Positions 3,001-60,953 of a stretch of 64,000 bases of DNA are shown in pieces. Numbering within the stretch: the first letter of the stretch is position 1; the number at the start of each line of letters is the position of its first letter. Source of the DNA: an uncultured Candidatus Saccharibacteria bacterium (lineage in GTDB: Bacteria > Patescibacteriota > Doudnabacteria > UBA920). The stretch lies in contig CAYYWQ010000001.1 of the NCBI GenBank assembly GCA_964474825.1, positions 820,152-884,151 on the forward strand. Reading direction: 5' to 3'. A model generated the notes under the pieces. It ran no database searches. It saw nothing but the letters and a program-made list of their open reading frames with translations, and was not told the origin of the DNA. A program made the translations under genes and the position numbers.

Positions 3001-6000
3001 TTTTACAGGTATTTGCTACAAAATCGGAAGTATAGACCGGCGTAAGCAAATTGTTAATAAACGCCGAGCTGACGCCTCCGTTTTGCGGGTTTAATTTGGC
3101 AAGCTCGGTAAAAGCCCCCTTAGACATAAAGTACTTCCCGGTTGGCGAAGAGGTGGCGTTTAACTGGTCGTTAAAAAAGATAGCATCGTCAAATTTAACT
3201 TTATTCTTGTCGGCAACAAATCCCGGATTCTTTGCCCTGACTACCTCCTTAATCCTTTCCCCGGAAACATCGTAAGTAAAGTTGGAAATACCGCCCGAAG
3301 AGTCAACAGTTTTTAGCGTATTCTTTTTTGTCCAAGTGTATAAATTATTTCCGTCGTCTAAAACATTACCGTTTAAATCATACGACATCCTTGTGGTGCC
3401 AATTAAGGACGCGGCGTGGGGGTTGCGGTAGTCCGTACCGTCATAATAATAGCTAACATCGTTTGCCGACAATAAATTGCCAACTGGGCTATAGGTAAAC
3501 TGACCGGAGACAGACTGGCCGTTTTCTACTCTAGTGGTGTTAGTCAAGCGCTGGAGTTCATCATAAACAAATTTATTCGCAATACTGCCGCCGTCGCCCG
3601 AATATTTTTCCGTGGTGCTGGTAATTAAACCGGCCAGGTTGTAATTTAGATTTTGGCTATAAAGCAGGCTGGGCGCGGTTGTACTGGCCGAAGAACAGGC
3701 GTCTGTCCCCTTGAAAACGTAAATATCGGAAAGCCTGGGCGCGGTATTTCCGCCGTTTGTGCTCGAATAGTTATAACAAGACTTAGTAATGTTGCCGTAA
3801 GTTAACTCTTTTTGCGTCCCGTCTATATTGTATCTGGCATTATTCACTACGTCAGTAGTTACTGTCTGGCCATTGACGCTTCGCTGCACTTTTACGCTCT
3901 TTTGTTTGCCGTTTGGGTCATAGGTATAAAGCAATTTACTGCCGTCCGGCAAAATTACTCCGGCTATTTGCCCCAGCGCGTTATAAACATAGTAATGGGC
4001 AAAGCTTTGATCGTCTATATATTTGGTTTCGCTCTGGATTTGCCCGCTTTTTGTGTAAGTTATGTTTTGCGTGTAGTCGGAATTACTAACACTGCAAAGC
4101 GCGCCAATGCCGTTTTGGCAATTATCGTAAGTATAGGCCGTGGTTAAATCCCCGTTGCTCTCGCTTAACGGGCGATACAATGAGTCGTAAACATAGGTAA
4201 ACTTATTTTGCTCGGGGTCAGTTTTGCTGGTTAAATTGCCTACTGGATCGTAGGTATATTTATAGACGCCGAAAGTATTGTCGCCTTTTTTGTGCAAATC
4301 TTCCTGGCTTATTAGCCGGCCTTCGCCGTCATAGGTAAAGTTGCGCGCATTGCCTTCGGCGTCTTCTAAATAAACCAAATTGCCCAAAATATTCCATTTG
4401 TAGGCAGTGACATTATTAACAGCCCCATTTTCTTCAGTTACGGATGTTACTTTGTTAAAACTATTGTATTTGTAAATTTTGGTGTGCTTGTCGCCGGTGT
4501 TATCGTAAACTTTTTTGCCGTTTACGTAATAATCCGTGTAAGTCTCGCTGTCGCCCTGTTTGGTTTTAACAAGCCTGCCAATGTTGTCATAAGTGAATTT
4601 GGTGTCCAATGCCGAATTGTACCCGGCCAATACGCCATTTCTGTCATAAGGATAAGTTAAGCTTTCCACCTGGCCTAAATTGTTATAGCGTGTAACGGCG
4701 GTTTTATTGCTATTCTCAGTGTCCGTTTCGCTGGCTTGGATGTTTCGCCCAAAACTATCAAATTTATTTTCCACTGTTTTATAAACACTACCATCTGAAT
4801 AAATACTGTCGGTTTGCACCATTCCCAAACCATAAGCGATATTGGAAGTGGAAACCAATTCCAAGTTGCCGGTCTTGGGGCTGGTGGCTGAAACTTTTAT
4901 TCTGTTGCCAAAACCGTCATAGGCGTTTTCGGTGATGCTGCCGTTAGGGTTAACGCTGGAAACCCGCAAGCCCCAAGCTTTGTCGTATTTTACATTGGTT
5001 ATCTGGCCTAACGCGTTTATGGATTGGACCGGGTTGTTATAATTGTCGTAATAAGTCGTGGTGGTATTGCCGTTGTCGTCGGTAACTTTTTCCGGCAGGC
5101 CTTTGGAATTATAGGCATAAGTGATTTTGGTATATTGGGTAGGGCTGGAATAGTTACGGGCTTCGGTTAACAGCCCTTTTTCCAAATAGCCAAAAGGCAG
5201 GTTATCGTAAAAATTAACCTTTTTGTCTATAAATTTGCCGTTTATGTCGGATTTTTCCTCGGATAAAAACTTTTGCGGGCGGTTGGTGGTGGAAATTAGA
5301 ATTGACGTGACCAAGTCGTCGCCAAGGTCGGTAATTGTGTCACTGGAAATATCATAGTTAACCTCGCCGTAATTAACAATGTGCTTTGGCAGCCTGGAAG
5401 CCAAATCGTAATCGTAGGTTTCGGCTTTTATTTGCTTGCCGTCGCTTGTGTCATACTGGGTGGTGATGGCTTCTTTAGGATAATTAAAAATTTGTCCCGC
5501 GGATTGATAAACGCCAAACGTACGGTAAGTTTCGGAATAAAGGGTGGGGCCGCCAAATAGTTGATCCTTAAACTCTTTGCCAATTAAGTTAATGGAATCG
5601 CCTCGTTCATTTAGTAACGAATTGTCGCCGTCGCCCTGATGGAAATATTTAACCGTTTTTTGACTGCCCTTTTGGACACTAACTTTACCAAACCCGGCGA
5701 ACCTGCGGTCGCGGATGTTATTAACGTCATAATACATTTTCCCCTGCTCAAAGGTATATTGCGTGGTTTCTACTAAATTGTTTACACCTTCGGTTTCCTT
5801 AACCTGGTCAACAGCCAAAATGTTTATAGGCAAATTAGGGTTAAGTAAAACCGCGGAATTTTCCATACTGGCAGTGCCTTTGTAGGCAACATCTATTTTA
5901 CTGCCCAAACTTCCGGTAACGTTAGTTAAAATGTCTGTTTTTTTAGGGTTAGTATTCTCTTGCAAAAAGCTCGTGGTGACTTTTGGATTACCTGCGTAAG

Positions 6001-7861
6001 TGTTCCAATTATTTGTCTCGTAATATATTGTTGTGCCGCCTTTTAAGTCTGGGTTATCTTTTTTTACAAAAGCTTTGCCATTATTTATATAAAGCTCTGT
6101 AAAAGTGCCTTGCGGAATAGCCGGTTTATCTAGCCAATAAGGCGATTGGTTAGTTTTATAAGACCTGATAATATCCGGCAAGCCGTCTAAATTTACGTCT
6201 ACAAACTGAACGCCCAGGTCTGTATCCACCCCCGAACCATTTGTTGGTTGATAATGAAAGGTTAAAGCGGTCGGAATTTTCATCCCCATTTCCGGACTGC
6301 CGTTCCAACCATGTCCGTTATTTAAGTACACGTACTTGCTGTTTAAGGAAGGGTTCGTACTGCTGGCAAAATCCCCTATCTTATCTATTAAACCGTCACC
6401 ATTAAAGTCGCCTTTTAGGGAATCCAGATCAGAATTGGCAAAATCTTGCGTTTGCTCAAAACCATTACCCTTATTTAAAAATGCGCCTGATTGTTCCGCA
6501 CCGTTGGCTAATACGTCCTGCAATCCGTCACCGTTTAAATCAACGGCCACCGCGGTTTTATTGTACCACCAGGAGTTTAGATTATTCGGGGAAGAATAAG
6601 ATATGGGAAAATTATATGTGCTTATAGGATAATTTACTAATGAACCCTTAACGTTCTTTTTATAAATATTGTCTGAAAAATTTTGAAAACCTTGATAATT
6701 TATATACCTGGAATTATTATACATATCCGGCAAATAGTCGCCATTGGCGTCAATAACCAAATAACTCCTGCTTCCGTCTATATAGGTATCCAAATTATCC
6801 GGCCGACCGTCCCCGTTGGTGTCTATGCTTATTGTGGAATTGTTGGACGGCGTAACCCAGTTTAAGCTTGCCGAAAAATCCAAGCCTTGGGTGTAACTAA
6901 AGGTGGTGGCCGGAAGCGATGTCCAGGACCCATCTGTCCCAAGCCGGGATTCGGTTATAGAAGAAAGCAAACTGCGACTGCCGTTTTGGCCGGTGATGTA
7001 CGCCAAGTCCAACTGGGCTTCCAAAACGCCGTCCGTATAAGCTTTAACCGATTTTAGGCGGTCAGTCATTACGGTTAAAAACCCGTTTCTGTAGCCGGCC
7101 TCCTCGTCTGGCCGCCCTTCTCTTTCAAACACCACGCGGTTTGAAAAGTTCCCCTGTTTGTCAAAGGTATAATCTATCTCCTTAGGATAAACAAAATTGT
7201 TTTTCTTTTCGTAAAAATATTTAATTTGGTTTCCGAATACGTCTTTTACTGAATTTAAATAATATTTGGAAATTTTAGTCCCACTGTCGTCCGACAGCCG
7301 GGAGTCCAAGGCCTGGCCAAAAGTGTAACTGTTGCCCGAACGGTCGGCCAGGGTCCAAATATTATTAGTAAAAGTGTAAAGTTGGTAGGAGCCGTCATCA
7401 AACTTTTGCAAATAATTATTCGTTGTTCCGGCTTTTAAGACAAGTTCGCCGCCCAGGCTGGAAACAAAAGCGTTATTGTCCGTAAACATTTTGTCTACCC
7501 CGCTTTTGGACGTGCGTTCAATATAAGGTATAGGCAAAGCCATTCCGTATCCAACAATGCTGTTTTCAGGATTTTGGGAATTATAGTTTATGGAAACAGA
7601 CGGCCCCAAACCAAACTTGCCTTTAGGCACGACAAGCGGATAAGAATAAGTAAACGCGCCGTTTGATGCATCCACACCGCTGCTGCCAATTGTCTTTAAC
7701 CGGTTGGCTTTGGTGCCAACCGTATTTAAAGCATTGGAAGTATCGCTATCCTGGATGGCTTGCGGAGCAGCCAAAGCTATCAACGGCGCCAAAGATTGTA
7801 AAGTAAACAAAAAAGCCAAAAAATAGCTTGTTAGTCGAATTTTTTTACGATTACTGGGCAT
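1..7861 (-). CDS. Giant RHS/YD-repeat protein (signal peptide, SpvB/TcdB-like N-terminal domain, multiple YD repeats, LamG-like domain near window start); ORF continues beyond window start
   Basis: ATG at 7859-7861 (minus). No minus-strand stop-bounded ORFs are listed in 1..7860, and plus-strand ORFs there are short. Hand translation of the N-terminus gives MPSNRKKIRLTSYFLAFLFTLQSLAPLIALAAP ... FTYSYPLVVPKGKFGLGPSVSINYNSQNPENSIVGYGMALPIP (SpvB-like). YD repeats include KFTYDNIGRLVKTKQGDSETYTDYYVNGKKVYDN (about 4500-4600) and YTYDPVGNLTSKTDPEQNKFTYVYDSLYRPL (about 4150-4300). Near 1-300 the translation gives LYLGNTSDDWPESNYYVGNLDDIAVFNRALTPAEI (LamG-like). Confidence 0.6.
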   Translation of the reverse strand, partial: MPSNRKKIRLTSYFLAFLFTLQSLAPLIALAAPQAIQDSDTSNALNTVGTKANRLKTIGSSGVDASNGAFTYSYPLVVPKGKFGLGPSVSINYNSQNPENSIVGYGMALPIPYIERTSKSGVDKMFTDNNAFVSSLGGELVLKAGTTNNYLQKFDDGSYQLYTFTNNIWTLADRSGNSYTFGQALDSRLSDDSGTKISKYYLNSVKDVFGNQIKYFYEKKNNFVYPKEIDYTFDKQGNFSNRVVFEREGRPDEEAGYRNGFLTVMTDRLKSVKAYTDGVLEAQLDLAYITGQNGSRSLLSSITESRLGTDGSWTSLPATTFSYTQGLDFSASLNWVTPSNNSTISIDTNGDGRPDNLDTYIDGSRSYLVIDANGDYLPDMYNNSRYINYQGFQNFSDNIYKKNVKGSLVNYPISTYNFPISYSSPNNLNSWWYNKTAVAVDLNGDGLQDVLANGAEQSGAFLNKGNGFEQTQDFANSDLDSLKGDFNGDGLIDKIGDFASSTNPSLNSKYVYLNNGHGWNGSPEMGMKIPTALTFHYQPTNGSGVDTDLGVQFVDVNLDGLPDIIRSYKTNQSPYWLDKPAIPQGTFTELYINNGKAFVKKDNPDLKGGTTIYYETNNWNTYAGNPKVTTSFLQENTNPKKTDILTNVTGSLGSKIDVAYKGTASMENSAVLLNPNLPINILAVDQVKETEGVNNLVETTQYTFEQGKMYYDVNNIRDRRFAGFGKVSVQKGSQKTVKYFHQGDGDNSLLNERGDSINLIGKEFKDQLFGGPTLYSETYRTFGVYQSAGQIFNYPKEAITTQYDTSDGKQIKAETYDYDLASRLPKHIVNYGEVNYDISSDTITDLGDDLVTSILISTTNRPQKFLSEEKSDINGKFIDKKVNFYDNLPFGYLEKGLLTEARNYSSPTQYTKITYAYNSKGLPEKVTDDNGNTTTTYYDNYNNPVQSINALGQITNVKYDKAWGLRVSSVNPNGSITENAYDGFGNRIKVSATSPKTGNLELVSTSNIAYGLGMVQTDSIYSDGSVYKTVENKFDSFGRNIQASETDTENSNKTAVTRYNNLGQVESLTYPYDRNGVLAGYNSALDTKFTYDNIGRLVKTKQGDSETYTDYYVNGKKVYDNTGDKHTKIYKYNSFNKVTSVTEENGAVNNVTAYKWNILGNLVYLEDAEGNARNFTYDGEGRLISQEDLHKKGDNTFGVYKYTYDPVGNLTSKTDPEQNKFTYVYDSLYRPLSESNGDLTTAYTYDNCQNGIGALCSVSNSDYTQNITYTKSGQIQSETKYIDDQSFAHYYVYNALGQIAGVILPDGSKLLYTYDPNGKQKSVKVQRSVNGQTVTTDVVNNARYNIDGTQKELTYGNITKSCYNYSSTNGGNTAPRLSDIYVFKGTDACSSASTTAPSLLYSQNLNYNLAGLITSTTEKYSGDGGSIANKFVYDELQRLTNTTRVENGQSVSGQFTYSPVGNLLSANDVSYYYDGTDYRNPHAASLIGTTRMSYDLNGNVLDDGNNLYTWTKKNTLKTVDSSGGISNFTYDVSGERIKEVVRAKNPGFVADKNKVKFDDAIFFNDQLNATSSPTGKYFMSKGAFTELAKLNPQNGGVSSAFINNLLTPVYTSDFVANTCKKIISTDKDACVRETTLKAFYAKTLKEKSLDLSFGALQEIWFVFKGKVSLPVDLSVYLQNIFDGTYVPFNNSNVKAVVPDNVNVYYQAVINGVPTQAGNPAPTVYMSESGYDELALNKLNSKNKADALFEIAAQSPYIAEKCSQSADQDCAKKEIVKFVSGFLFSKYNILLSAKALAEMDMVVKDKLLLPINKIPYGKLANGSYLIGQDLVNDASKIIPSVTDSAIKTEVIDRTNKALYGYLYQEKSIPSLFAKSKLISQETLKEIEDLGITYSSLVIYDRLIDNSFAPYGACDQEANDHAKYDCRKQAFVKYLYAIVKYDKDKELTSYALDEIFDAMLGNLTVPNKLDEYKINEQKIYSIQNTNPRSYGQVYVNYGFNFPSYTNGACQIGTYYQGSSNYHLCEFDFLLPAELVNRKDEIATTTVDLSFSNGNTNYTGGVQVARPYNPPSVYFVPLMSNAAPALGSYFFDNNTDSSLRSPALTIDVSRPNTLDITKIVKAFASGAMANFGLRIATGGDDTFVNNINSFTMAVTYSKDADQIKRNVYTPLVINPKDSDVENNVLKVLSRIDRNYNPGGNTIISQETYNEIKGTNLTSTSSLNQLFDQNEKLQKDQTLAAVWDSIRTTASTTNETKLTREALEELYMVWQGKLRLPQDANEYNSTLTSAVFDRGSLVNLSVVPGVSSVRDLSAADLPLPQKMNVSKESAAELLGVGITKRDDIFQYLTDPASFGTSAVSTTTTISKTDKLDTLKNIYVNVKANKNLSLTREALEEIYYIVNGYLVFPDATKSMITVNQELASSTLATDPALISYYKMEGNSNDSKGNHNGAAANVSYVPGKFGQGGGFGGSGRISTFIMPTYPYSIAGWIKTSTKNNDAFWSNLRYSGTYRGFTLRVEDTGTLQIYDGSSWYVGTVSVADGVWHPIALLRQAANTQVYVDGILDISTNNPPGPEATDQPLYLGNTSDDWPESNYYVGNLDDIAVFNRALTPAEITGLYASINV

Positions 7862-7894
7862 ACTGGTTTAAATAGGAATAACTTAGATATTTCC

Positions 7895-17452: not shown

Positions 17453-17455
17453 GCT

Positions 17456-17923
17456 GTCTTTACTAACTACTAATAGTTACTAATATACTAATCAAGATTT
17501 ACAATCCTTTTATAATGCACACCTCTCGGAGCAAAATAGACTAATATCCCCAATTTTAAATTCTTAGCAACAAGATACTGATAAACTTGTTTAATGTGTG
17601 CCGAAGAAAAATGGTCGCCTTTTTTTAATTCCAATACAATAATATTTTCTATTAAAAAATCAAAAAAGTTTCTGCCAACAATTTTATCCCCAAACATTAC
17701 CGGCGCATACAATTGCTCTGTAAACTTGAATCCCGCTTGCCTTAAAGCTTCTGCCACTGCCTTTTGATAGGTTTTCTCGTCATAGCCATAACCGAGTTGG
17801 TTAAAAACGTTCATCACGCTCCCAACTATTCTATAGCACTCATCTTTATAAACCAAGCCGTCTCTTTTGTTGCCTTCTGCAGTCATTAGTATATTAGTAC
17901 AGATTCGTAGTTAGTAAAGACAG
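17456..17923. repeat. Cassette: two inverted repeats of about 38 bp (TACTAAC family) exactly bracketing the GxxExxY ORF
   Basis: Left 17456-17493 CTTTACTAACTACTAATAGTTACTAATATACTAAT. The reverse complement of right 17884-17923 is CTTTACTAACTACGAATCTGTACTAATATACTAAT. The stop and start codons lie inside the repeat termini. Confidence 0.6.
17488..17886 (-). CDS. GxxExxY-family protein
   Basis: 132 aa. Motif GYDEKTY (G-x-x-E-x-x-Y) and a C-terminal GILVYF region typical of the family. Confidence 0.7.
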   Translation of the reverse strand: MTAEGNKRDGLVYKDECYRIVGSVMNVFNQLGYGYDEKTYQKAVAEALRQAGFKFTEQLYAPVMFGDKIVGRNFFDFLIENIIVLELKKGDHFSSAHIKQVYQYLVAKNLKLGILVYFAPRGVHYKRIVNLD

Positions 17924-18691: not shown

Positions 18692-18738
18692 GTCGTCCCG
18701 AATGCAATGAGGGACCCCTCGGCTGCACTCGGGATGAC
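18692..18738 (-). terminator. Palindromic element GTCGTCCCGA...TCGGGATGAC downstream of the aldolase gene (family also at 34032-34136)
   Basis: Inverted repeat seen directly. Positioned at a gene 3' end. Confidence 0.4.
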
Positions 18739-26687: not shown

Positions 26688-26762
26688 GCGGGTATCGTAT
26701 AGCGGTTATTATCTCAGTTTTCCAAACTGATGATGGGGGTTCGACTCCCCCTACCCGCTCCA
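26688..26762 (+). tRNA. tRNA-Gly (anticodon UCC)
   Basis: GCGGGTA acceptor / TACCCGC. Anticodon arm TCAGT-TTTCCAA-ACTGA. T-arm GGGGG-TTCGACT-CCCCC. 3' TCCA. Confidence 0.85.
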
Positions 26763-26771
26763 GACAATTTT

Positions 26772-26799
26772 AAAAGCCCCCACTTGGGGGCTTTTTCTT
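26772..26799 (+). terminator. Terminator after tRNA-Gly
   Basis: AAAAGCCCCC-ACTT-GGGGGCTTTTT. Confidence 0.5.
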
Positions 26800-26843
26800 C
26801 TGTAGGCATCTGTAGTGTAATTTAATCCGTAGTTCTGTAGCTC
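26800..26843. repeat. CTGTAG-family repeat (right-arm copy CTGTAGGCATCTGTAGTG plus TTCTGTAGCTC tail) abutting the HU stop codon
   Basis: Shares about 40 nt with the copy at 48979-49016. Confidence 0.5.
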
Positions 26844-27124
26844 TATCTTAATTTTACCGCAGCCTTAAACGCTTCACCCGCTTTAAACTTTGGGGTGTTG
26901 AGCTCAGGGATGGTAATTTTCTGGGAAGGATTACGGGGGTTAACGCCAATTCTGGAAGCACGGTGGGACACGCTAAACTGGCCAAAACCCGAAATATTAA
27001 CTTTGTCTCCGGTCCTTAGCTGTTCGTAAACCATGCTAATTAAGGTATTTAAAAATCTTTCCGCTTCGCTGTGGGTTATACCCAATTTAGCGGCTAATTG
27101 CTCGGTGAGCTGGAGTTTATTCAT
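26843..27124 (-). CDS. hup: HU family DNA-binding protein
   Basis: 93 aa. GFGQFSV...RNPRTGE-like HU arm. Confidence 0.85.
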   Translation of the reverse strand: MNKLQLTEQLAAKLGITHSEAERFLNTLISMVYEQLRTGDKVNISGFGQFSVSHRASRIGVNPRNPSQKITIPELNTPKFKAGEAFKAAVKLR

Positions 27125-32775: not shown

Positions 32776-32882
32776 AATATTTCTCCGAAATCTCTACTAA
32801 ATACTAAATGAGACTAAAAATACTAAATCTAGAAACCTTCGCTTTCGTATTTTTAGTTATTTTAGTATTTAGTAGAAAATAA

Positions 32883-34031: not shown

Positions 34032-34136
34032 GTCATTCCGAGGAGTGCAGCCGACGAGGAATCCCTTAAATCTAATTCTTGAATAAGGGATCCCTCCGCT
34101 CACCGTCGGATGCACTCCGGCTCGGTCGGGATGACA
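34032..34136. repeat. Nested palindromic element (TGTCATTCCGAGGAGTGCAGCCGACG ... CGTCGGATGCACTCCGGCTCGGTCGGGATGACA) filling the gap between convergent genes; related to 18692-18738
   Basis: Inverted repeats seen directly. Shares the TGCACTC(C)GG...TCGGGATGACA motif. Confidence 0.45.
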
Positions 34137-35422: not shown

Positions 35423-35478
35423 ATAAAAGATAATATACGAATTCGAATATTTGCGCTAGATTAGTATATTAGGGATTA

Positions 35479-36690: not shown

Positions 36691-36706
36691 GAAAAACCTT
36701 TCACCT

Positions 36707-36793
36707 GTCTTTACTAACTACTAATTTTTACGAATATACTAATGCTAGTATTTGGAATTAGTATATTCGTATCCATTCGTAGTTCGTAAAGCC
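36707..36793. repeat. TACTAAC-family palindromic element, cargo-less copy (arms separated by 12 nt)
   Basis: CTTTACTAACTACTAATTTTTACGAATATACTAAT / ATTAGTATATTCGTATCCATTCGTAGTTCGTAAAG. Confidence 0.6.
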
Positions 36794-36868
36794 AGTAAAT
36801 TTATGTTTCCATTATAATTCCTTTTCCTTCACCTGTCTAAAACATCCTAGAATTGTTATAATAACTTT

Positions 36869-38377
36869 ATGGGAAAATCTTTCTTAAACTCTATTCCTCA
36901 TAAATTCACCAAAGAAGAAGAGCAACTGCTTCTCCATGCCTTTGAATTCGCCAAAAAAGCCCATGAGGGACAAAAGCGCAAAAGTGGCGAGGAGTACATT
37001 ATTCATCCCGCTGAAACAGCTTTAATTTTAGGAAAAATTTTTCCAGACACCAAAGCCTTAGTCGCCTCGCTACTGCATGACGTTCCCGAAGACACCCAGG
37101 TAACTATAGAACAAATTAAAAAAGAATTCGGCGAAGAAATTAGCCAAATTATAGACGGTGTTACCAAACTGGGACAGGTAAGACTGCGCTCAAGCAAAGA
37201 CAAATTTTACATAGAAAATTTGCGTAAGTTGTTCATTGCCACCAGCAAAGACATTCGCGTTATTTTGGTTAAACTGGCCGATCGGCTTCATAACATGCGC
37301 ACCCTGAAGCACATCCCCCCGGAAAAACAAGTTAAGGTCGCCACTGAAACTTTAGAAATGTACGCTCCAATTGCCAGCCGCCTGGGCATTAGCTCCTGGA
37401 AGGACGAACTGGAAGACCTTTCTTTTAAAATTGTTTTTCCAAAAGAATATGAGGAAACCAAAATTACTTTGGACCAAGAGTTGGAGCGGCGCGGCGCGGA
37501 TATAAAAGAAACCCAGCGTCTGCTGGAACACATGCTTAGGACCGAAGGCATAAAATTTTTGGAAGTTAACGGGCGCGTAAAACGGCTTTATTCCCTGCAC
37601 CGGAAACTGCAGCGCTACAAAGGCGATATCCAGAAAATTTTTGACGTAGTGGCCTTTAGGGTCATTACCAAAGCTACCACGGACTGCTACGCGGCCTTAG
37701 GCGTTATTCATAAACATTTCCAGCCAGTACCGGGAAGGATTAAAGATTACATTGCAACACCCAAACCCAATGGCTACCAGAGCATTCACACCACTGTATT
37801 TAACCAAAGCGGCCAAACCCTGGAAATCCAAATCCGTACCGATTTAATGCACGAGGAGTCTGAACGTGGAGTAGCTGCCCATTGGTTTTACGAGGAAGAA
37901 GGCAAGGGCGATTACACAACCAGGCTGCAGGCGCCGTGGATTAAAGAACTTTCCGCCTGGCAGGACCTGGCCGACGACCCCGAGGAATATTTGGAAAGTT
38001 TGCGCATAGATTTTTTCCGGGACCGGATTTTTGTATTCACTCCCAAAGGCGACATCAAAGACCTCCCTCTTGGCGCCACAGCAATAGATTTTGCGTTCAA
38101 TGTCCACACCGACCTGGGCTACCACATGATGGGCGCCAAAATTAACGACAAAATGGCCAGCATTTATGACGAACTGGACAACGAAGACACAGTGGAAATT
38201 ATTAAAAGCAAAAAGCCGGTTAAAATTTCCCAGGACTGGCTTAAGGCCGCAAAGACTTCCAGCGCCAGAAACAGAATTCGCCACTACCTAAACGAAAACA
38301 ACAGAGGCATTATCCAGCGGGTTAAAGAATTAAAACTAAAAGACCTCTCCCTCCCGAAATTTTTTAGAAAAAAATAG
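36869..38377 (+). CDS. RelA/SpoT homolog, (p)ppGpp synthetase/hydrolase (HD + synthetase + TGS domains, no ACT)
   Basis: HD motif HDVPED, synthetase region, and TGS FVFTPKGDIKDLPLGATAIDFA. Confidence 0.8.
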   Translation: MGKSFLNSIPHKFTKEEEQLLLHAFEFAKKAHEGQKRKSGEEYIIHPAETALILGKIFPDTKALVASLLHDVPEDTQVTIEQIKKEFGEEISQIIDGVTKLGQVRLRSSKDKFYIENLRKLFIATSKDIRVILVKLADRLHNMRTLKHIPPEKQVKVATETLEMYAPIASRLGISSWKDELEDLSFKIVFPKEYEETKITLDQELERRGADIKETQRLLEHMLRTEGIKFLEVNGRVKRLYSLHRKLQRYKGDIQKIFDVVAFRVITKATTDCYAALGVIHKHFQPVPGRIKDYIATPKPNGYQSIHTTVFNQSGQTLEIQIRTDLMHEESERGVAAHWFYEEEGKGDYTTRLQAPWIKELSAWQDLADDPEEYLESLRIDFFRDRIFVFTPKGDIKDLPLGATAIDFAFNVHTDLGYHMMGAKINDKMASIYDELDNEDTVEIIKSKKPVKISQDWLKAAKTSSARNRIRHYLNENNRGIIQRVKELKLKDLSLPKFFRKK

Positions 38378-38474
38378 CTACCGAACTACGAAAACAAAAA
38401 CACTACAGATACCTACAGAAAAGTACTTAATTTCTGTAGGTATCTGTAGTGCAAAAAATCCTTAGTTCGGTAGC
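38377..38474. repeat. CTGTAG-family nested palindrome (outer GCTACCGAACT/AGTTCGGTAGC; inner CACTACAGATACCTACAGAA / TTCTGTAGGTATCTGTAGTG), probable bidirectional terminator
   Basis: Fills exactly the space between convergent stop codons. Confidence 0.6.
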
Positions 38475-39073
38475 TAAAACATTATATCTTCCTCAGCGCG
38501 TTTGTATTCATGAATTTCGTCTTTAGCAAACCAAAGGCCAATTTCGTTATTGGCTTCGTCTGTTGTTTCAGAGGCGTGCATGATGTTATGGATGGCGCGG
38601 CGTTCAATGTTAGCCACAGAAGGGCTGTCTACGCTGTAATCGCCCCTTATGGTGCCCATTTCCGCAAAAACCGGTAAAGTGTTACCAGCCAGCTTACGGA
38701 CCATGTCTATGGCATGAATACCCTGGACCACCATGGCTACCACTGGCCCGGACTGCAAATATTTAAACAAACTTTCTTTTACCATTTTACCAAGTTCTTT
38801 TGGGTCAGCTGTTCCCTGAGCGGCAACCGGGTCAATGGCGTATTCAGTAAAAGTTTTTAAAGTTTTAGTCCCCAAGCGTTCCACCCATTCCTCGCTTTTT
38901 GGAAAATGGTTTTCCAAATGCTCGCGGCCAACCTGGACCATTTTCATGGCAATGACTTTAAGGCCGCGGTGTTCAATGCGGCTAACCACTTCACCAATAA
39001 GGCCGCGCTTTACGCCGTCCGGCTTAACCAAAACTAATGTACGTTCCTGTTTGATTTGCAAATGTTTTTCCAT
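38474..39073 (-). CDS. ndk: Nucleoside diphosphate kinase (extended)
   Basis: LVLVKPDGVKRGLIGEVVSRIE. Confidence 0.8.
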   Translation of the reverse strand: MEKHLQIKQERTLVLVKPDGVKRGLIGEVVSRIEHRGLKVIAMKMVQVGREHLENHFPKSEEWVERLGTKTLKTFTEYAIDPVAAQGTADPKELGKMVKESLFKYLQSGPVVAMVVQGIHAIDMVRKLAGNTLPVFAEMGTIRGDYSVDSPSVANIERRAIHNIMHASETTDEANNEIGLWFAKDEIHEYKRAEEDIMF

Positions 39074-39092
39074 TTTAATCCTTTTAACTGTT

Positions 39093-39175
39093 TTTACTAA
39101 CTACGAATGCGTACTAATATACGAATTCCAACCTTTAGCATTAGTATATTGGTAAAGATTAGTAGTTAGTAAAGG
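39093..39175. repeat. TACTAAC-family palindromic element, cargo-less copy
   Basis: TTTACTAACTACGAATGCGTACTAATATACGAAT / CATTAGTATATTGGTAAAGATTAGTAGTTAGTAAAGG. Confidence 0.6.
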
Positions 39176-39183
39176 CAGAAGTG

Positions 39184-48534: not shown

Positions 48535-48927
48535 AAATTTTTATTTATTTTTTTTTAAAGACTAAAGTAACCTATTTTAAAAATCCTTTGGGCTGCAATT
48601 TTAGTATTTCGGCATCTTGTCAGAAAAAATTTTTCAGCTTAGCTTTGGCTAAACCTCAAAATTTATTTCTGCCGATCTGCTCGAAATCCTAAAATTTCGC
48701 CTCTCAAATTATTTTTCAAATAGGTTAGCAAAAAATTTAGCTCTCCAATTGTCAGAGCCAATCGCTAATCTTTAAAATCTTCTTTTCTTAATTGTGTTTT
48801 GTTTTTGTTTCTTAATCCGCGATTTTGGCGGATTTAGATAAAGTTTTCTTTGCCTTTTTGGCAATCGACCTTTGAAAACCTTGTACATGTATTATAGCAC
48901 AGCTGCGGAAAAAAAGCAAGAGGTTTC

Positions 48928-49016
48928 CACTACAGATGCCTACAGAATAAAAAAACTTCCGCCCAATCAGGATGGAAGTTTCTGTAGGTATCTGTAGTGA
49001 ATTTTTTCTGTAGCTC
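48928..49016. repeat. CTGTAG-family palindrome (CACTACAGATGCCTACAGAA ... TTCTGTAGGTATCTGTAGTG) plus TTCTGTAGCTC tail, immediately 3' of ftsZ
   Basis: 20-bp arms with a structured 31-nt loop. Third copy of the family. Confidence 0.6.
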
Positions 49017-49023
49017 CGTAGCC

Positions 49024-50232
49024 TTACTTCATCTTCTTGCGAATGAAGGCGGGGATGTCCAGTTCGTCGTCTGAGGCAGAGGGATCTTCTGCGGTTGGTT
49101 TAGTAATGGGACGAATGGGCTGGGGTTGGAACGGCTGCTGCATGGGCTGGGAAGGCTGGGGGTTAAACAAAGGCTTCCTGACTTCAGTCGGCTGCAGGGG
49201 CCTGGCTTCCAATTTTTTAGTTTCCTCGCGGGTAGGAAGCTGCACCGGCATGGGACGTTTGTTGCCTTCGTCAAAACCCGTGGCAATAACAGTAATGCGG
49301 ATTTCGTCGCCCATGGCCTCTTCTACCACCGCGCCAAACTTTACTTTGGCGTCCGGGTCTATACTCTTGGTAATAACTTTGGCGGCTTCGTCTATTTCAA
49401 ACATTCCCAAGCTGCTGCCGCCGGTAATGTTAAACAACACTCCCCTGGCGCCGTCTATTGTCATTTCAAGCAGCGGAGAATTAATAGCCATACGAGCCGC
49501 GTCTTGCGCGCGGGTTTCACCGCTGGCTCTTCCAATACCCATAAGGGCCGTGCCCGCGTCTTGCATTATGCTGCGCACGTCCGCGAAGTCCGCGTTAACA
49601 ATTCCGTGGGTTGTAATTAAATCGGAAATACCGGCAATGCCCTGGCGCAAAACTTCGTCTACTGTTTTAAAAGCTTCCATGAGGGAAGTTTTTTTGTCTA
49701 TAATTTGAAGTATGCGGTCGTTGTGAATGGAAATTATGGCGTCTACTTTGTCTTTTAAATTGTCATAACCTGCCTCGGCAACTTCCTTGCGCTTGCTGCC
49801 TTCAAAAGTAAACGGCTTGGTTACAACTGCCACTGTGAGCACGCCTTTATTTTTTGCAAGCTCGGCTAAAATAGGTGCCGCGCCTGTTCCTGTGCCGCCG
49901 CCCAAACCACAAGTTATAAAAACCATGTCAGCGTTGTCTACAACTTCTTCCAGCTCCTCTACGCTTTCTTCTGCCGCCTGCCGTCCGAGTTCCGGATTCA
50001 TTCCCGAACCAAGGCCTTTGGTAATACTTTTGCCAATATGGACTTTGCGGTCTGCCTGGTTGTTGTGGAGCGCCTGGGCGTCGGTGTTAACCGCAATAAA
50101 TTCCACGCCGCGGATACCCAACTGGCTCATGCGGTTAACGGCCGAAGTGCCGGAGCCGCCAATGCCTAAGACCTTAATTCTGGCAAAAGTTTCGATTTTT
50201 GGTTTCACTTCCATTGATTGGTGTTTTTTCAT
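49024..50232 (-). CDS. ftsZ: Cell division protein FtsZ
   Basis: VLGIGGSGTSAVNRM (T1) and GGGTGTGAAP (T4). Confidence 0.9.
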   Translation of the reverse strand: MKKHQSMEVKPKIETFARIKVLGIGGSGTSAVNRMSQLGIRGVEFIAVNTDAQALHNNQADRKVHIGKSITKGLGSGMNPELGRQAAEESVEELEEVVDNADMVFITCGLGGGTGTGAAPILAELAKNKGVLTVAVVTKPFTFEGSKRKEVAEAGYDNLKDKVDAIISIHNDRILQIIDKKTSLMEAFKTVDEVLRQGIAGISDLITTHGIVNADFADVRSIMQDAGTALMGIGRASGETRAQDAARMAINSPLLEMTIDGARGVLFNITGGSSLGMFEIDEAAKVITKSIDPDAKVKFGAVVEEAMGDEIRITVIATGFDEGNKRPMPVQLPTREETKKLEARPLQPTEVRKPLFNPQPSQPMQQPFQPQPIRPITKPTAEDPSASDDELDIPAFIRKKMK

Positions 50233-58540: not shown

Positions 58541-60298
58541 TTAGGGATCGACGAATCTTGCGGCAAGGCCGGAGACGGTGGCAATGGCCCCGTCGGTAAA
58601 CTTCTTGACGGCGCTGGGCTCCACATATGGAACAACCAACTGAGCAAACTGTTCGTCGCCCAGGACTGCTCGGGCCCAGCGCACACGGCGGAAATCGTCG
58701 AGATTGGTGGGGTTCTTGCGTTCGTAAAGAATCAAGTTGTCCAAAGACTCGGCCGCGACGTCTACCGTCGTTTTGCCGCCTTCGGAAAGTTCTAACACGA
58801 ACTTGGACGGGAAACTACAGAGTGCTCCCTGACAAAGTTGGAAGTACAATTGCCGGAACCCTTCCGACAGTTGGTGCTTCCTAACAAGAACAGCAAGACC
58901 GTCCAGGCTCTCCTGGAAGTCTGAGTAGGTAATAGCGAAATTGGGCTCACTGCCCATGGAGACAACAACCGCGTTGGCGAGCTCAATCAGTTTGGCGGGC
59001 TCGCCGACGAAAAGCGTTTTTGCCGTAAGATTGTCGTCCTTGCTCGCAGCGACAACAAACTTTTTGAAAGTTACTGCCGTGGGGTCGGAGTCGGTTTTGA
59101 AAATCCGCTCCTTCAGGGAAGTAAGCTGACCGGTCGAGAAACCGCGGTATTGAAGCGGAGCCTCGGGAGCCGGCACGCCTTGCGCAACTGCGACGAGGAT
59201 CTTCTCCTCTGCGGGAGCCGGGGAAGGAGCAATACTCTGAACGTGCGCTCGCCTTTTCCAAAGGCGGGGCGGGTCGACCGAAACGGTTTCAACGTCGGAT
59301 GTCGCGAGCAAAACGGCAAACGTAGGGTTAGCCTCCGGTTCCGTCCTGCCGGTTACAATCTTGAAGTCAGGAGCGACATTATCGCCGCCGAAGTTGCGGA
59401 TTTGCGAATAGAGCACCTTCATCATATGAGGCGTCCACTTGCCGGTGCGGTAAACAAGGGCGCGTTGGAGAATTTTGCCGCGTTCAAAGTAGTTTGGGAT
59501 TGCTCGCGCCCAAACCTCGGCCACGGTTTTTTCCACGTCCCCAATTTCGGAGATTGCGGGCAGCTCACCATACACAGGATACAAGTAGCCGCCGCCGTCC
59601 TGGTAAATAAACCGCTGGACCAAGTCGACAATGTCAATCTGGTCCGGGTTGAGCACAATGCGTCCTACGCAGTGGCTCAAGATTTGCTGGACGCGCCGGT
59701 CAAGCTCGGAAAACGCCTCGTCTTCTTCCATATCCACGAGGTTCTTGTCGGTGTCGAGGGCTGTTGTGTCCACGGCAATAATGCGCACGCCGAGACCAAC
59801 AACTTCCGCGAGCTGCTTTTTGTAGCCCTCAAGTTCCCCGGGGGAAACCGAAGGGTTGTCGCTGGAAGGGACGCTGACCACAACAATCGGGACAACCCCT
59901 TCCTGCAGCAGCAGCTCCACCATAGGCTTAAGCGTGCCCGTTCCGGTCCCCTTGCCCAGGGCAAAGAAACTGACGGCAATATCTAGCGGCTGAAGCGCCG
60001 CCGAAACTTTGTCGCGATGAAATTCAAACGCTGCCCGCGCGACCTCGGGGTTAAAGCCTGTGCCGTCGCGGCCCGTGCCGTCTTCACCTGTTCCCAGCAG
60101 CACGGAAGAGAACTCCAAACCGAATTCCCCGGCTTTAAAAAACACTTCCACTGCTTCAAGTGTGGCGTGATTTGTGTCGAGCGATGCATACCGCTCGGCT
60201 GGCCATCCGCTGCTTCTTCCGTAAGCAGCAAAGCGTTTGGCCATTTGGTTGCCGCCATAGCCGGAGCCAATGACTCCGACCGTTAATCTATTGGACAT
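58541..60298 (-). CDS. Divergent tubulin/FtsZ-superfamily GTPase, TubZ-like (585 aa with a long C-terminal extension)
   Basis: T1-like GVIGSGYGGNQMAKRF. SLDTNHATLE (compare FtsZ NTDAQAL). T4 GKGTGTG. T7-like LNPDQIDIVD (N-x-D-x-x-D). SD GGGAGGGG 4 nt upstream of the ATG at 60296-60298. Confidence 0.65.
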   Translation of the reverse strand: MSNRLTVGVIGSGYGGNQMAKRFAAYGRSSGWPAERYASLDTNHATLEAVEVFFKAGEFGLEFSSVLLGTGEDGTGRDGTGFNPEVARAAFEFHRDKVSAALQPLDIAVSFFALGKGTGTGTLKPMVELLLQEGVVPIVVVSVPSSDNPSVSPGELEGYKKQLAEVVGLGVRIIAVDTTALDTDKNLVDMEEDEAFSELDRRVQQILSHCVGRIVLNPDQIDIVDLVQRFIYQDGGGYLYPVYGELPAISEIGDVEKTVAEVWARAIPNYFERGKILQRALVYRTGKWTPHMMKVLYSQIRNFGGDNVAPDFKIVTGRTEPEANPTFAVLLATSDVETVSVDPPRLWKRRAHVQSIAPSPAPAEEKILVAVAQGVPAPEAPLQYRGFSTGQLTSLKERIFKTDSDPTAVTFKKFVVAASKDDNLTAKTLFVGEPAKLIELANAVVVSMGSEPNFAITYSDFQESLDGLAVLVRKHQLSEGFRQLYFQLCQGALCSFPSKFVLELSEGGKTTVDVAAESLDNLILYERKNPTNLDDFRRVRWARAVLGDEQFAQLVVPYVEPSAVKKFTDGAIATVSGLAARFVDP

Positions 60299-60953
60299 CT
60301 TTCCCCTCCCTAAAATCAAAAAGTAACCAAACCTGGTTTGTCTCCACGGCCCGCGCAAGGCGAAAACGTGGATCCGAAAATTCTTTTTCAATCAGCCTTA
60401 ACTCTTCGAGCGCGTGGCCTTGAAAGCCATGGCCCAAAGTTGGGTAAGTGCGGGACGGGTTCGGTCTGAGGCCAACCCAGACACCAGGCAATTCCAACCA
60501 CGGCTGAACGCTATAGCTTAAAGGGTCCCGGTGTGCGGGACTCGACCGGCGAACAAAAAATTGCTCGCCAATAAGCTCGCCGTGTTTGACCAACACCTCT
60601 CGAAGATACGTGTGAGCAGGTGGTGGCCGCCAATTGTATATATTTTGCGCCTGCAAGTCAAAACTCAAACCCTTTGTAAAACAGGGCTGAGCAAAATCGA
60701 CCGGAAAGAACCGCAGACTTGCTTCCGCAAATGCCTGATTTGCTAAAAGCAAGGAACGTATAAAACTATCGCGTTCGGGACCGTTAAGAACTGCGTGGTC
60801 GAAACGGATTACTCCATCCCGAACCACAAAATTCTGTTCGTAATCCGTGTTCCGGTTATGGTCGCGAAGGAACCGAAGCAAAAATTCGAGGAACTCCCTC
60901 AAAGCCTGCTCCAGCTCCCGGCCATTCCGGGAAAAACCAGACATCATATTCAT
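60288..60953 (-). CDS. Hypothetical protein, translationally coupled upstream partner of the TubZ-like gene
   Basis: 11-nt overlap (ATGTCCAATAG). SD GGAGG 6 nt upstream of the internal ATG. Confidence 0.4.
   Translation of the reverse strand: MNMMSGFSRNGRELEQALREFLEFLLRFLRDHNRNTDYEQNFVVRDGVIRFDHAVLNGPERDSFIRSLLLANQAFAEASLRFFPVDFAQPCFTKGLSFDLQAQNIYNWRPPPAHTYLREVLVKHGELIGEQFFVRRSSPAHRDPLSYSVQPWLELPGVWVGLRPNPSRTYPTLGHGFQGHALEELRLIEKEFSDPRFRLARAVETNQVWLLFDFREGKDVQ

Follow-up and report, generated by a model that had tools for sequence, protein, structure and literature searches.

CTGTAG-box arms at gene boundaries of Doudnabacteria-type Patescibacteria: a possible protein-recognised, REP/BIME- or MITE-like intergenic repeat family

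The REP/BIME sequences of Enterobacteria and Pseudomonas are short, dispersed, extragenic repeats that contain GTAG, reach tens to hundreds of copies per genome and are associated with RAYT (Y1, PF01797) transposases, inverted pairs being common at 3' ends or between convergent genes and the consensus being common to related species. Roles in termination and mRNA stability have been proposed for them, as has upkeep by a dedicated protein. The Correia elements of Neisseria, which are MITEs of about 100 bp with terminal inverted repeats, are co-transcribed as hairpins that are possible RNase III substrates, can bring promoter or terminator signals, and vary in presence and absence between relatives. 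To our knowledge nothing is known of such cis-elements in uncultivated CPR bacteria such as Doudnabacteria. Another group of short repeats, the TAACTGA heptamers of Beggiatoaceae, Cyanobacteria and Bacteroidetes, is arranged in contiguous tandem and almost never inverted, and the genes downstream share no functional pattern and have no canonical ribosome-binding sites (PMC4679880).

In the window, by which we mean the whole 64,000-nt stretch of DNA analysed here, the 20-mer TTCTGTAGGYATCTGTAGTG has five exact matches at three sites, all of them intergenic, against 0.00 expected from 100 shuffles (Table 1), which bears out the near-identical 20-bp arms that a first-pass annotation described at three sites, in two long hairpins and a half-copy. 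This 20-mer is a direct repeat, TCTGTAG-N3-TCTGTAG, in which two identical 7-mers lie 10 bp apart; CTGTAG-N4-CTGTAG occurs five times in the window against 0.08 expected, and 71 same-strand CTGTAG pairs have a spacing of exactly 10. Each arm comprises this inner pair, a variable spacer of 8-16 nt and one or two outer boxes about 8 bp apart, the whole measuring about 45 nt, and its most conserved portion is inner, not terminal. The outer end always points toward the neighbouring gene, usually touching its stop or start codon. Arms stand singly or as inverted pairs, the loop of the latter consisting of only a few nt, of an intrinsic terminator or of promoter-like, AT-rich DNA; 18 inverted pairs were found, with loops of 1-82 nt and in alternating orientation, as in BIME, while about 40% of the arms have no inverted partner. 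The functional unit is the arm of about 45 nt, and not the hairpin.

Table 1. Repeat copies and adjoining features, in positions of the 64,000-nt window.
Feature	Position	Strand	Remark
Matches of the 20-mer TTCTGTAGGYATCTGTAGTG	26798(+), 38401(-), 38432(+), 48928(-), 48980(+)		exact
Sister-family copy with cargo	17454..17923	-	39-nt arms 17923-17885 and 17492-17454
GxxExxY / PD-(D/E)XK_3 gene, 132 aa	17488-17886		cargo between the 39-nt arms
tRNA-Gly	26688-26762	+	
Canonical bidirectional terminator hairpin, tRNA-Gly and hup	26772..26795		adjoins the inner end of the hup arm
Single arm 3' of hup	26798..26842	+	20-mer 26798-26817, spacer, CCGTAG TT CTGTAG
Sister-family palindrome, no cargo	36705..36795		mutM-relA gap; TACTAA/TACGAA boxes, 39-nt arms, 13-nt loop
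relA/ndk left arm, outer boxes, TAG CTACCGAA CTACGAAA	38375..38393	+	first 3 nt are the relA stop TAG, 38375-38377
relA/ndk inner left arm, CACTACAGATACCTACAGAAA	38401..38421	+	two CTACAG boxes 10 nt apart; reverse complement of the 20-mer
relA/ndk palindrome loop	38422..38430		9 nt
relA/ndk inner right arm, TTTCTGTAGGTATCTGTAGTG	38431..38451	+	
relA/ndk outer right arm, TAGTTCGGTAG CTA	38463..38476	+	includes the ndk stop, 38474-38476, minus strand
Sister-family palindrome, no cargo	39088..39178		ndk start to cyclophilin stop; 3-nt loop
Promoter-like TTGCTT-N14-TGcTATAAT (extended -10)	48891..48919	-	8 nt past the distal arm
ftsZ-distal arm, 20-mer	48928..48947	-	toward the downstream promoter
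Canonical intrinsic terminator of ftsZ, ACUUCCAUCCUGAUUGGGCGGAAGU then U7	48948..48979	-	in the palindrome loop
ftsZ-proximal arm	48980..49023	+	20-mer 48980-48999, spacer, outer boxes CTGTAG CT CCGTAG CC

Between relA and ndk (38375-38476) the inner arms of 21 nt are 100% complementary (38401-38451), and the outer inverted repeat reported earlier to enclose them, TAGCTACCGAACT(A), is confirmed, measuring 13-14 nt and containing both TAG stop codons. As RNA, this copy has folding energies of -54.9 and -60.8 kcal/mol for its two strands (z about -14). On the ndk (minus) strand the inner stem is followed by UUUUUGUUUU, a U-tract (complement of 38391-38400, left of the stem), and on the relA (plus) strand by CAAAAAAUCC (38452-38461), which holds no U-tract, so that the stem-loop and U-tract of an intrinsic terminator occur together on the ndk strand and not on the relA strand. 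Judged from its sequence, the inverted-pair hairpin is a plausible terminator only for ndk.

The half-copy described 3' of hup is indeed a single arm without an inverted partner, and it is unstructured when folded as RNA. Its tail TTCTGTAGCTC (26833-26843) shares 1 nt with the hup stop (26843-26845, minus strand); at ftsZ one more box, CCGTAGCC, lies between the same tail (49006-49016) and the stop (49024-49026, minus strand) at which the proximal arm ends. The shared tail is real, but it does not simply abut the stop codon as had been stated. Likewise, the loop at ftsZ is structured as claimed, its identity being that of the canonical ftsZ terminator (stem ACTTCC..GGAAGT followed by U7), which is kept in one relative, L027, with compensatory stem changes. 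The promoter-like site beyond the distal arm is kept in L025, L026 and L027, including relatives that have no boxes.

The family is not genome-specific, as had been supposed, since the exact 20-mer is found at 22 loci in 10 other GTDB species representatives (Patescibacteria MAGs, Doudnabacteria and relatives), 21 of these loci having the same box layout, and in 23 metagenome stretches, about 17 of them with the full box architecture. Three loci lie in the 64-kb window, and other genomes carry 1-6 exact 20-mers each together with degenerate copies. Rfam 15 gave only sub-threshold, generic hairpin (miRNA-precursor) matches and nothing at the gathering or E-value threshold, the plasmid and viral collections gave no meaningful matches to the repeat, and the literature searched contained neither the motif nor any description of CPR intergenic repeats, in agreement with the earlier statement that the family is undescribed for this kind of organism. 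The last box lies 0-5 nt from a stop codon in 15 of about 58 arms and from a start codon in 12, and about six arms lie upstream of -35 boxes. A family that is extragenic, dispersed, palindrome-forming and situated at gene ends is what the first-pass annotation had described, but its restriction to 3' ends does not hold, arms being as often flush upstream of starts or promoters. The neighbouring genes are heterogeneous in function (hup, ftsZ, relA, ndk, rpsG, glmS, pilB/C, mraZ, rplJ, and those of a DEAD-box helicase and an MBL-fold protein).

Identity is 78-87% between orthologous arms and 66-81% between the adjacent coding sequences, and the next 45 nt beside the arms are at the shuffled level (58-64%) in five of six comparisons. 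Since the arms keep such identity beside spacer at the random level, it is the boxes that are under constraint. Orthologous sites are polymorphic for the insertion, as in MITEs: 3' of ftsZ, the window, L027 and L045 have a copy and L025 and L026 have none; 5' of pilB, L015 and L029 have one and L016 lacks it; and L038 has two arms at a site where L050 has one. At the window and LOG|TAL junctions no direct repeat is definable as a target-site duplication, the palindrome merging with the flanking TAG/CTA stops.

The hairpin, on the other hand, is not the conserved feature, because so many arms are single and because the pairing of facing arms is no better than that between unrelated ones. In fact, complementarity at non-box positions is 6.1/10 for paired arms and 6.6/10 for arms of different loci, and conservation of an RNA structure was rejected on this basis.

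We tentatively favour the interpretation that the three sites belong to a protein-recognised, modular intergenic repeat family, REP/BIME- or MITE-like, of a clade of Doudnabacteria-type Patescibacteria, and rate its chance at a little under even. Since it is the boxes, and not the pairing between arms, that are conserved, each arm would most likely be a recognition array for a putative sequence-specific protein, which would spread or maintain the copies in the manner of RAYT for REP/BIME or of a transposase for MITE ends. The elements would persist where they are tolerated, namely in the gaps of a few nt between genes, and this would explain the flush junctions. As a secondary effect, an inverted pair would give transcripts a hairpin of 21-45 bp, which away from ndk would lengthen or flank a canonical terminator and might shield 3' ends or serve as a substrate of RNase III. 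Against this interpretation stand the absence of a transposase or RAYT among the 47 ORFs of the window (Pfam), the absence of an ORF between the CTGTAG arms in about 45 loci and the lack of a clear target-site duplication. A Y1_Tnp gene lies at the edge of one locus of a relative (L059). Furthermore, the spacers show no genome-specific homogenisation and the conservation of the boxes at orthologous sites spans deep divergence (rpsG, about 70% amino acid identity), so that purifying selection at the level of the host fits at least as well as selfish maintenance, and such selection would mean a regulatory or structural role.

A sister family with the same architecture is present in the window, two copies without cargo and one with cargo sharing their arms. 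The arms of the latter are flush with the stop of a LOG-family gene and the ATG of transaldolase, and in relatives the cargo of this LOG|TAL junction is polymorphic, being GxxExxY, a bAvd-like ORF or nothing; in L061 the gap is about 12 nt long. These ORFs are not known transposases. The CTGTAG and TACTAA families share their architecture only, and their relatedness is putative; the former may be the ORF-less counterpart of such sister box arrays with GxxExxY (PD-(D/E)XK) or bAvd-like ORFs in the loop. A bolder proposal, possible although we consider it rather unlikely, is that box-array arms are the ends of an unrecognised class of Patescibacteria mini-cassettes enclosing a small GxxExxY PD-(D/E)XK or bAvd-like ORF, or nothing. 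Such cassettes would have inverted arms with 4-5 phased boxes and would be lodged precisely in the few-nt gaps between genes, with each box flavour matched to its cognate protein, for which the GxxExxY nuclease itself is a possible candidate. On this view the CTGTAG arms would represent a widespread lineage without ORFs, kept up by a protein of this sort and in part domesticated to mark gene boundaries as terminator or insulator.

It is unlikely that the primary, selected function lies at the RNA level, with the palindromes acting at gene 3' ends, in REP-like fashion, as hairpins that terminate transcription and/or stabilise mRNA. The stability of the hairpins (-45 to -61 kcal/mol, z from -7.5 to -14.7), the U-tract after the 21-bp stem on the ndk strand, the arms beginning 0-5 nt past a stop codon, and the location of the 20-mer 0-4 nt upstream of a terminator stem at hup and, in three lineages, at ftsZ are all consistent with it. 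However, single arms are frequent, that of hup being unstructured, pairing is not kept beyond what the consensus gives, and arms are also found flush upstream of starts and upstream of -35 boxes. Two of the three window copies, at ftsZ and hup, are accompanied by canonical terminators of their own, so the repeat is not the terminator there, and the terminator role first proposed for the repeat is not supported except on the ndk strand, the relA strand having no U-tract. Moreover, a bare structural role would not explain the exact conservation of the boxes across species.

Still less probable, in our judgement, is that the arms serve as arrays of operators to which a DNA-binding regulator of the host or a nucleoid protein would bind, controlling adjacent promoters or insulating transcription units. 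A tandem winged-helix protein of the OmpR/PhoB type, which binds direct repeats one helical turn apart, is an example, and the 10-bp spacing of the TCTGTAG 7-mers falls within the 10-11 bp, centre to centre, of such sites. The boxes are phylogenetic footprints at orthologous sites, the number of exact copies per genome is regulon-like, and arms lie just upstream of consensus promoters in L004, L008, L009, L001, L027 and the window (48891-48947). The boxes may resemble Pho/WalR boxes, and also LexA, ops and Spo0A boxes, likenesses that we take as leads only. Nevertheless, the -35 box follows the last box at a variable distance (0, 2, 3, 7, 8 or 12 nt, up to more than 12), and at two of the three window sites the adjacent genes converge, leaving no promoter to control. 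Many arms are inside a 5' UTR, directly against the start codon, L025 and L026 have the same promoter without boxes, and the neighbouring genes are functionally incoherent.

A punctuation of translation or RNA processing, in which the stem joins an upstream stop to a downstream start or is an RNase III site, appears very improbable. It would act either in termination-reinitiation or shunt-like coupling of genes without a Shine-Dalgarno (SD) sequence, or by letting RNase III divide operon RNA into units whose 5' and 3' ends are complementary. It agrees with co-directional gene pairs (two in L016, one in L049, and LOG|TAL with its sister-family copy) in which 0-5 nt separate the stop from one arm and 2-5 nt separate the other arm from the start; those starts have no SD, and a strong SD precedes just 12 of the 47 window genes. 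Read toward the gene, the boxes have TAG in all three frames, and the similar TAACTGA heptamers lie a few nt upstream of starts where ribosome-binding sites are rare (PMC4679880). This explanation is inapplicable, however, to the convergent relA/ndk pair, to a lone arm such as that of hup and to arms that precede promoters, the pairing is not specifically conserved, and insertion into gaps like that of L061 explains the flush junctions equally well. An activator site was rejected for the variable spacing between box and -35, a DNA-uptake sequence because CTGTAG is not enriched outside the three elements (19 against 14.7 expected over the whole window), an invertible promoter because loops of 1-80 nt are too short, an integron attC because the sites lie among housekeeping genes and not in cassette arrays, and a CTRYAG restriction site because the outer boxes do not fit.

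A 20-mer that is better conserved than the adjacent coding sequence and found at many gene boundaries offers a handle on how transcription units are delimited or, alternatively, on how selfish DNA survives in genomes of about 1 Mb. The GxxExxY and bAvd-like ORFs represent two very large protein families for which we know of no function, and their link to bracketing palindromes, if true, would be the first genomic context for them. The arms could also serve annotation pipelines as gene-boundary markers in Doudnabacteria-type genomes.

Among known systems, the 23S rRNA intervening sequences (PF05635), in which an ORF lies in an RNase III-processed stem, resemble the sister families at LOG|TAL, where long inverted arms within a host transcript surround a small, selfish-looking ORF of bAvd/23S_rRNA_IVP-like or GxxExxY type; here, however, the host is the spacer of an mRNA operon and not rRNA, the arms are phased box arrays and the CTGTAG family itself is ORF-less. 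Like the TAACTGA heptamers (PMC4679880), the CTGTAG repeats are short, contain stop codons and lie a few nt upstream of starts, but their boxes are spaced by 8-10 nt in four-box arms that are often inverted and are equally common after stops. Paired copies resemble MITEs and Correia elements in their size of roughly 100 bp, in forming terminal inverted repeats around a short non-coding core, beside or between genes, in the promoter or terminator signals that they can include, and in their polymorphic presence among relatives. The family differs from MITEs in having no recognisable target-site duplication or known transposase partner, in the stronger conservation of the inner part of the arm, in the frequency of single arms and in the retention of orthologous boxes over deep divergence. 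With respect to REP/BIME, the window has no RAYT, copy number appears lower here, and 5' ends have arms too, immediately beside the start codon. Where REP has a GC-rich stem-loop, the unit here consists of directly repeated AT-moderate hexamers, and the CTGTAG 20-mer is not itself an imperfect palindrome of 20-40 nt, a palindrome arising only where two arms face each other. The REP/BIME-like character first assigned to the family therefore fails for the unit and stands for its genomic behaviour, since the CTGTAG repeats are likewise short, dispersed, extragenic and multi-copy, often form inverted pairs and share a consensus across species.

The window sequence was re-read, and the repeat sequences listed in the first-pass annotation were found exactly as claimed. 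In the window TTCTGTAGGYATCTGTAGTG occurs at five sites, which are collected in the table together with the neighboring genes, and it had no match in 100 dinucleotide-preserving shuffles; likewise, the pattern CTGTAG-N4-CTGTAG retrieves the same five sites versus 0.08 expected. Bare CTGTAG is present 33 times, 14 of them inside elements, versus 14.7 expected overall, and is not enriched outside the three loci. The 96-nt gap between relA and ndk is occupied end to end by the repeat element, both TAG stop codons lie inside its outer 13-14-bp stem, and RNA folding gives -54.9 kcal/mol for the plus strand and -60.8 kcal/mol for the minus strand (z about -14).

Window coordinates of the CTGTAG repeat, the adjoining genes and the sister repeat family
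Feature	Position	Strand	Remarks
TTCTGTAGGYATCTGTAGTG	26798	+	
TTCTGTAGGYATCTGTAGTG	38401	-	
TTCTGTAGGYATCTGTAGTG	38432	+	
TTCTGTAGGYATCTGTAGTG	48928	-	
TTCTGTAGGYATCTGTAGTG	48980	+	
tRNA-Gly	26688-26762	+	convergent with hup
hup	26843-27124	-	convergent with tRNA-Gly
relA/spoT	36869-38377	+	convergent with ndk
ndk	38474-39073	-	convergent with relA/spoT
ftsZ	49024-50232	-	
Sister-family copy	36705-36795		loop 13 nt
Sister-family copy	39088-39178		loop 3 nt
Sister-family copy with gene	17454-17923		same 39-nt arms; junction of LOG-family and transaldolase genes

The family had been considered genome-specific, a view that does not hold, as the exact 20-mer formed by the inner box pair was retrieved from 22 loci in a scan of 185,579 species-representative genomes, chance alone predicting about 4 matches to 19 specified bases in 596 Gb. 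Every one of these loci belongs to a Patescibacteria MAG (10 assemblies), three labelled Candidatus Doudnabacteria, and assemblies labelled 'Saccharibacteria' share proteins of 80-88% identity with those labelled Doudnabacteria. A metagenome scan yielded 23 further stretches with the 20-mer, about 17 of which display the full architecture. The nearest named relatives of the source genome are Doudnabacteria (FtsZ 83%, GxxExxY 77% and transaldolase 69% identity).

Alignment of all copies resulted in a directional arm consensus, [TT CTGTAG G(C/T)AT CTGTAG TG]-N8-16-[(C/T)(C/T)GTAG TT] CTGTAG, and same-strand CTGTAG pairs are spaced by exactly 10 nt in 71 cases, with further peaks at 8, 16 and 22-25 nt. 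The outer end of the arm points to the nearest gene in every case: of about 58 arms, 15 have their last box 0-5 nt away from a stop codon (for instance hup, ftsZ in three lineages, relA, ndk, rpsG, glmS and pilC) and 12 have it at 2-5 nt from a start codon (for instance mraZ, pilB and an MBL-fold protein, with N-termini that appear authentic), and about six more arms end directly upstream of a -35 box. The adjoining genes share no common function. About 40% of the arms have no inverted partner, and facing pairs enclose loops of 1-82 nt. Upstream of mraZ in L005, one of the loci from relatives or metagenomes designated here by L numbers, four or five GTGG(T/G) repeats with 10-bp spacing (~2880-2960), which we take to resemble MraZ-binding repeats, are followed by a CTGTAG arm and then by the mraZ ATG, 4 nt past the last box. 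The conserved arm is flush with the rpsG stop in L001 and L020, but in L002 about 560 nt of inserted GC-rich DNA (6655-7241), with an 86-aa ORF on the opposite strand that bears a CPICG motif, lie between the two.

The proposal that the repeat acts as a terminator is plausible by sequence for the ndk strand of the relA/ndk copy, on which alone a U-tract follows the 21-bp stem (UUUUUGUUUU; CAAAAAAUCC on the relA strand). In two of the three window cases the repeat is not the terminator, since separate canonical ones are present: at ftsZ the palindrome loop is a canonical intrinsic terminator, and the single hup arm, unstructured as RNA, directly adjoins a GC-rich bidirectional terminator common to hup and tRNA-Gly. 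The sequence TTGCTT-N14-TGcTATAAT starts 8 nt past the distal ftsZ arm. This entire layout is kept in L027 (Doudnabacteria, FtsZ 83%), where the terminator stem shows compensatory changes, and L045 keeps the proximal arm and a terminator; in L025 and L026 (FtsZ 86% and 84%) the terminator is present, as is this extended -10 promoter, with no boxes whatever at this site. Downstream of ftsZ (window 48535-48927, minus strand), that conserved promoter (TGcTATAAT, shared by L025, L026 and L027) precedes a ~390-nt leader and a 132-141-aa ORF without family match; stretches of the leader such as AAGGTCGAT are kept in relatives, and it matches no Rfam family. At relA/spoT (36850-36871) a perfect TATAAT ends 7 nt upstream of the ATG and no SD is present, so this mRNA is probably leaderless.

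Complementarity at non-box positions is 6.1/10 in paired arms versus 6.6/10 between different loci; pairing as such is not under selection. The 4-nt spacer between boxes is free to differ between partner arms (ATGC, ATAC, ATGT, ATAA, AGAC, AAGC), and mismatches are frequent. Arm identity at orthologous sites (the rpsG-fusA spacer of L001, L020 and L002; the ftsZ 3' side of the window, L027 and L045) is 78-87%, and that of the final 90 nt of the CDS is 66-81%; the next 45 nt beyond the arms fall to the shuffled level of 58-64%, except for the conserved terminator of the window/L027 pair. Because the boxes are conserved and neither pairing nor the neighboring spacer is, the boxes appear to behave as recognition sequences of a trans-acting factor, which we infer to be a protein. 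A role purely at the RNA level, as terminator or stabiliser, is considered unlikely.

Occupancy of orthologous sites varies. The ftsZ 3' side is occupied in the window, L027 and L045 and empty in L025 and L026; 5' of pilB, L015 and L029 carry the repeat and L016 does not, although that genome has the family elsewhere in this operon; and two arms in L038 correspond to a single one in L050. The second palindrome family of the window, with TACTAA/TACGAA boxes in the same four-box layout, gives 9 matches versus 1.2 expected. The arms of its third copy are flush with the LOG-family stop and the transaldolase ATG and enclose a 132-aa GxxExxY/PD-(D/E)XK_3 gene, whose start (ATG) and stop (TAG) overlap the inner ends of the arms. 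Palindromes with arms identical to these, the two gene-free copies of the table and those at 32793-32876 and 35423-35478, stand on the promoter side of genes, among them mutM/relA, ndk and groEL-like ones. Homologous GxxExxY genes elsewhere also lie inside inverted arrays of 2-5 boxes, and their box sequence varies from one element to the next (TACTAA in L051 and L055, TACCAA in L052, TACGGA in L054, CAAATATACAAA in L010 and L050, CCGAAT in L005). At the LOG-transaldolase junction the window, L054 and L055 have a GxxExxY gene, L059 and L060 a bAvd/23S-rRNA-IVS-protein-like ORF between ACAAG/CTTGT arms, and L061 a 12-nt spacer, empty of any element; each element has its own box sequence, the same on both arms. 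These elements are polymorphic mini-cassettes in gaps originally about a dozen nt long, which accounts for the flush junctions. In CTGTAG arms the outer boxes (CTACCGAA, CTACGAAA, CCGTAG) resemble the sister-family boxes, and both families may be related, as their common architecture suggests. A Y1 transposase gene (PF01797; L059 3968-4094), at the locus edge with hairpin-rich DNA upstream, is the sole HUH/Y1 enzyme observed near any of these repeat families.

Tentatively, we hypothesize that a REP/BIME- or MITE-like family has lodged at gene boundaries and that its arms are arrays recognised by a protein, the best supported reading. A protein would bind the box arrays, and inverted arm pairs would secondarily form long hairpins, with possible effects as termination (ndk), terminator extension (ftsZ), 3'-end protection or RNase III substrate. 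Host operator arrays with OmpR/PhoB geometry are less likely than a purely RNA-level role, considering the variable promoter spacing and the sites located in convergent gaps. Translational or processing punctuation is the least probable, even if the stop-stem-start geometry, starts in that arrangement without SD, the generally low SD use (strong SD in 12 of 47 window genes) and the analogy with TAACTGA repeats (PMC4679880) would speak for it.

Other features of the window include GC-rich hairpins that form a third repeat family, starting GTCATCCCGAG/GTCATTCCGAGG...GGGATGAC in two spacers (18692-18738 and 34032-34135), with similar strings in other CPR loci (L008 ~3230-3260, L002 ~7150-7200). 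A stop-free frame of >2,622 codons (1-7867, minus strand) runs past the left end and thus indicates a putative giant gene; the apparent lack of ORFs in this region arises from the exclusion of run-off frames from the ORF calls. Between 56000 and 64000, GC is 50-60% versus about 42% elsewhere, GC skew flattens, and the genes have no Pfam matches except a divergent 616-aa tubulin/FtsZ-like protein (58541-60391); this region may be an acquired island.

Neither Rfam nor the literature searched contains a match to the CTGTAG family, which is not a plain terminator. The REP unit is by definition self-palindromic, whereas that of the CTGTAG family is not. MITEs have a transposase partner and target-site duplications; for the CTGTAG elements no clear duplication was found, no transposase lies within the 64-kb window, and among about 45 loci no copy carries an ORF between CTGTAG arms. 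The family is best filed as a new variety of dispersed intergenic repeat.
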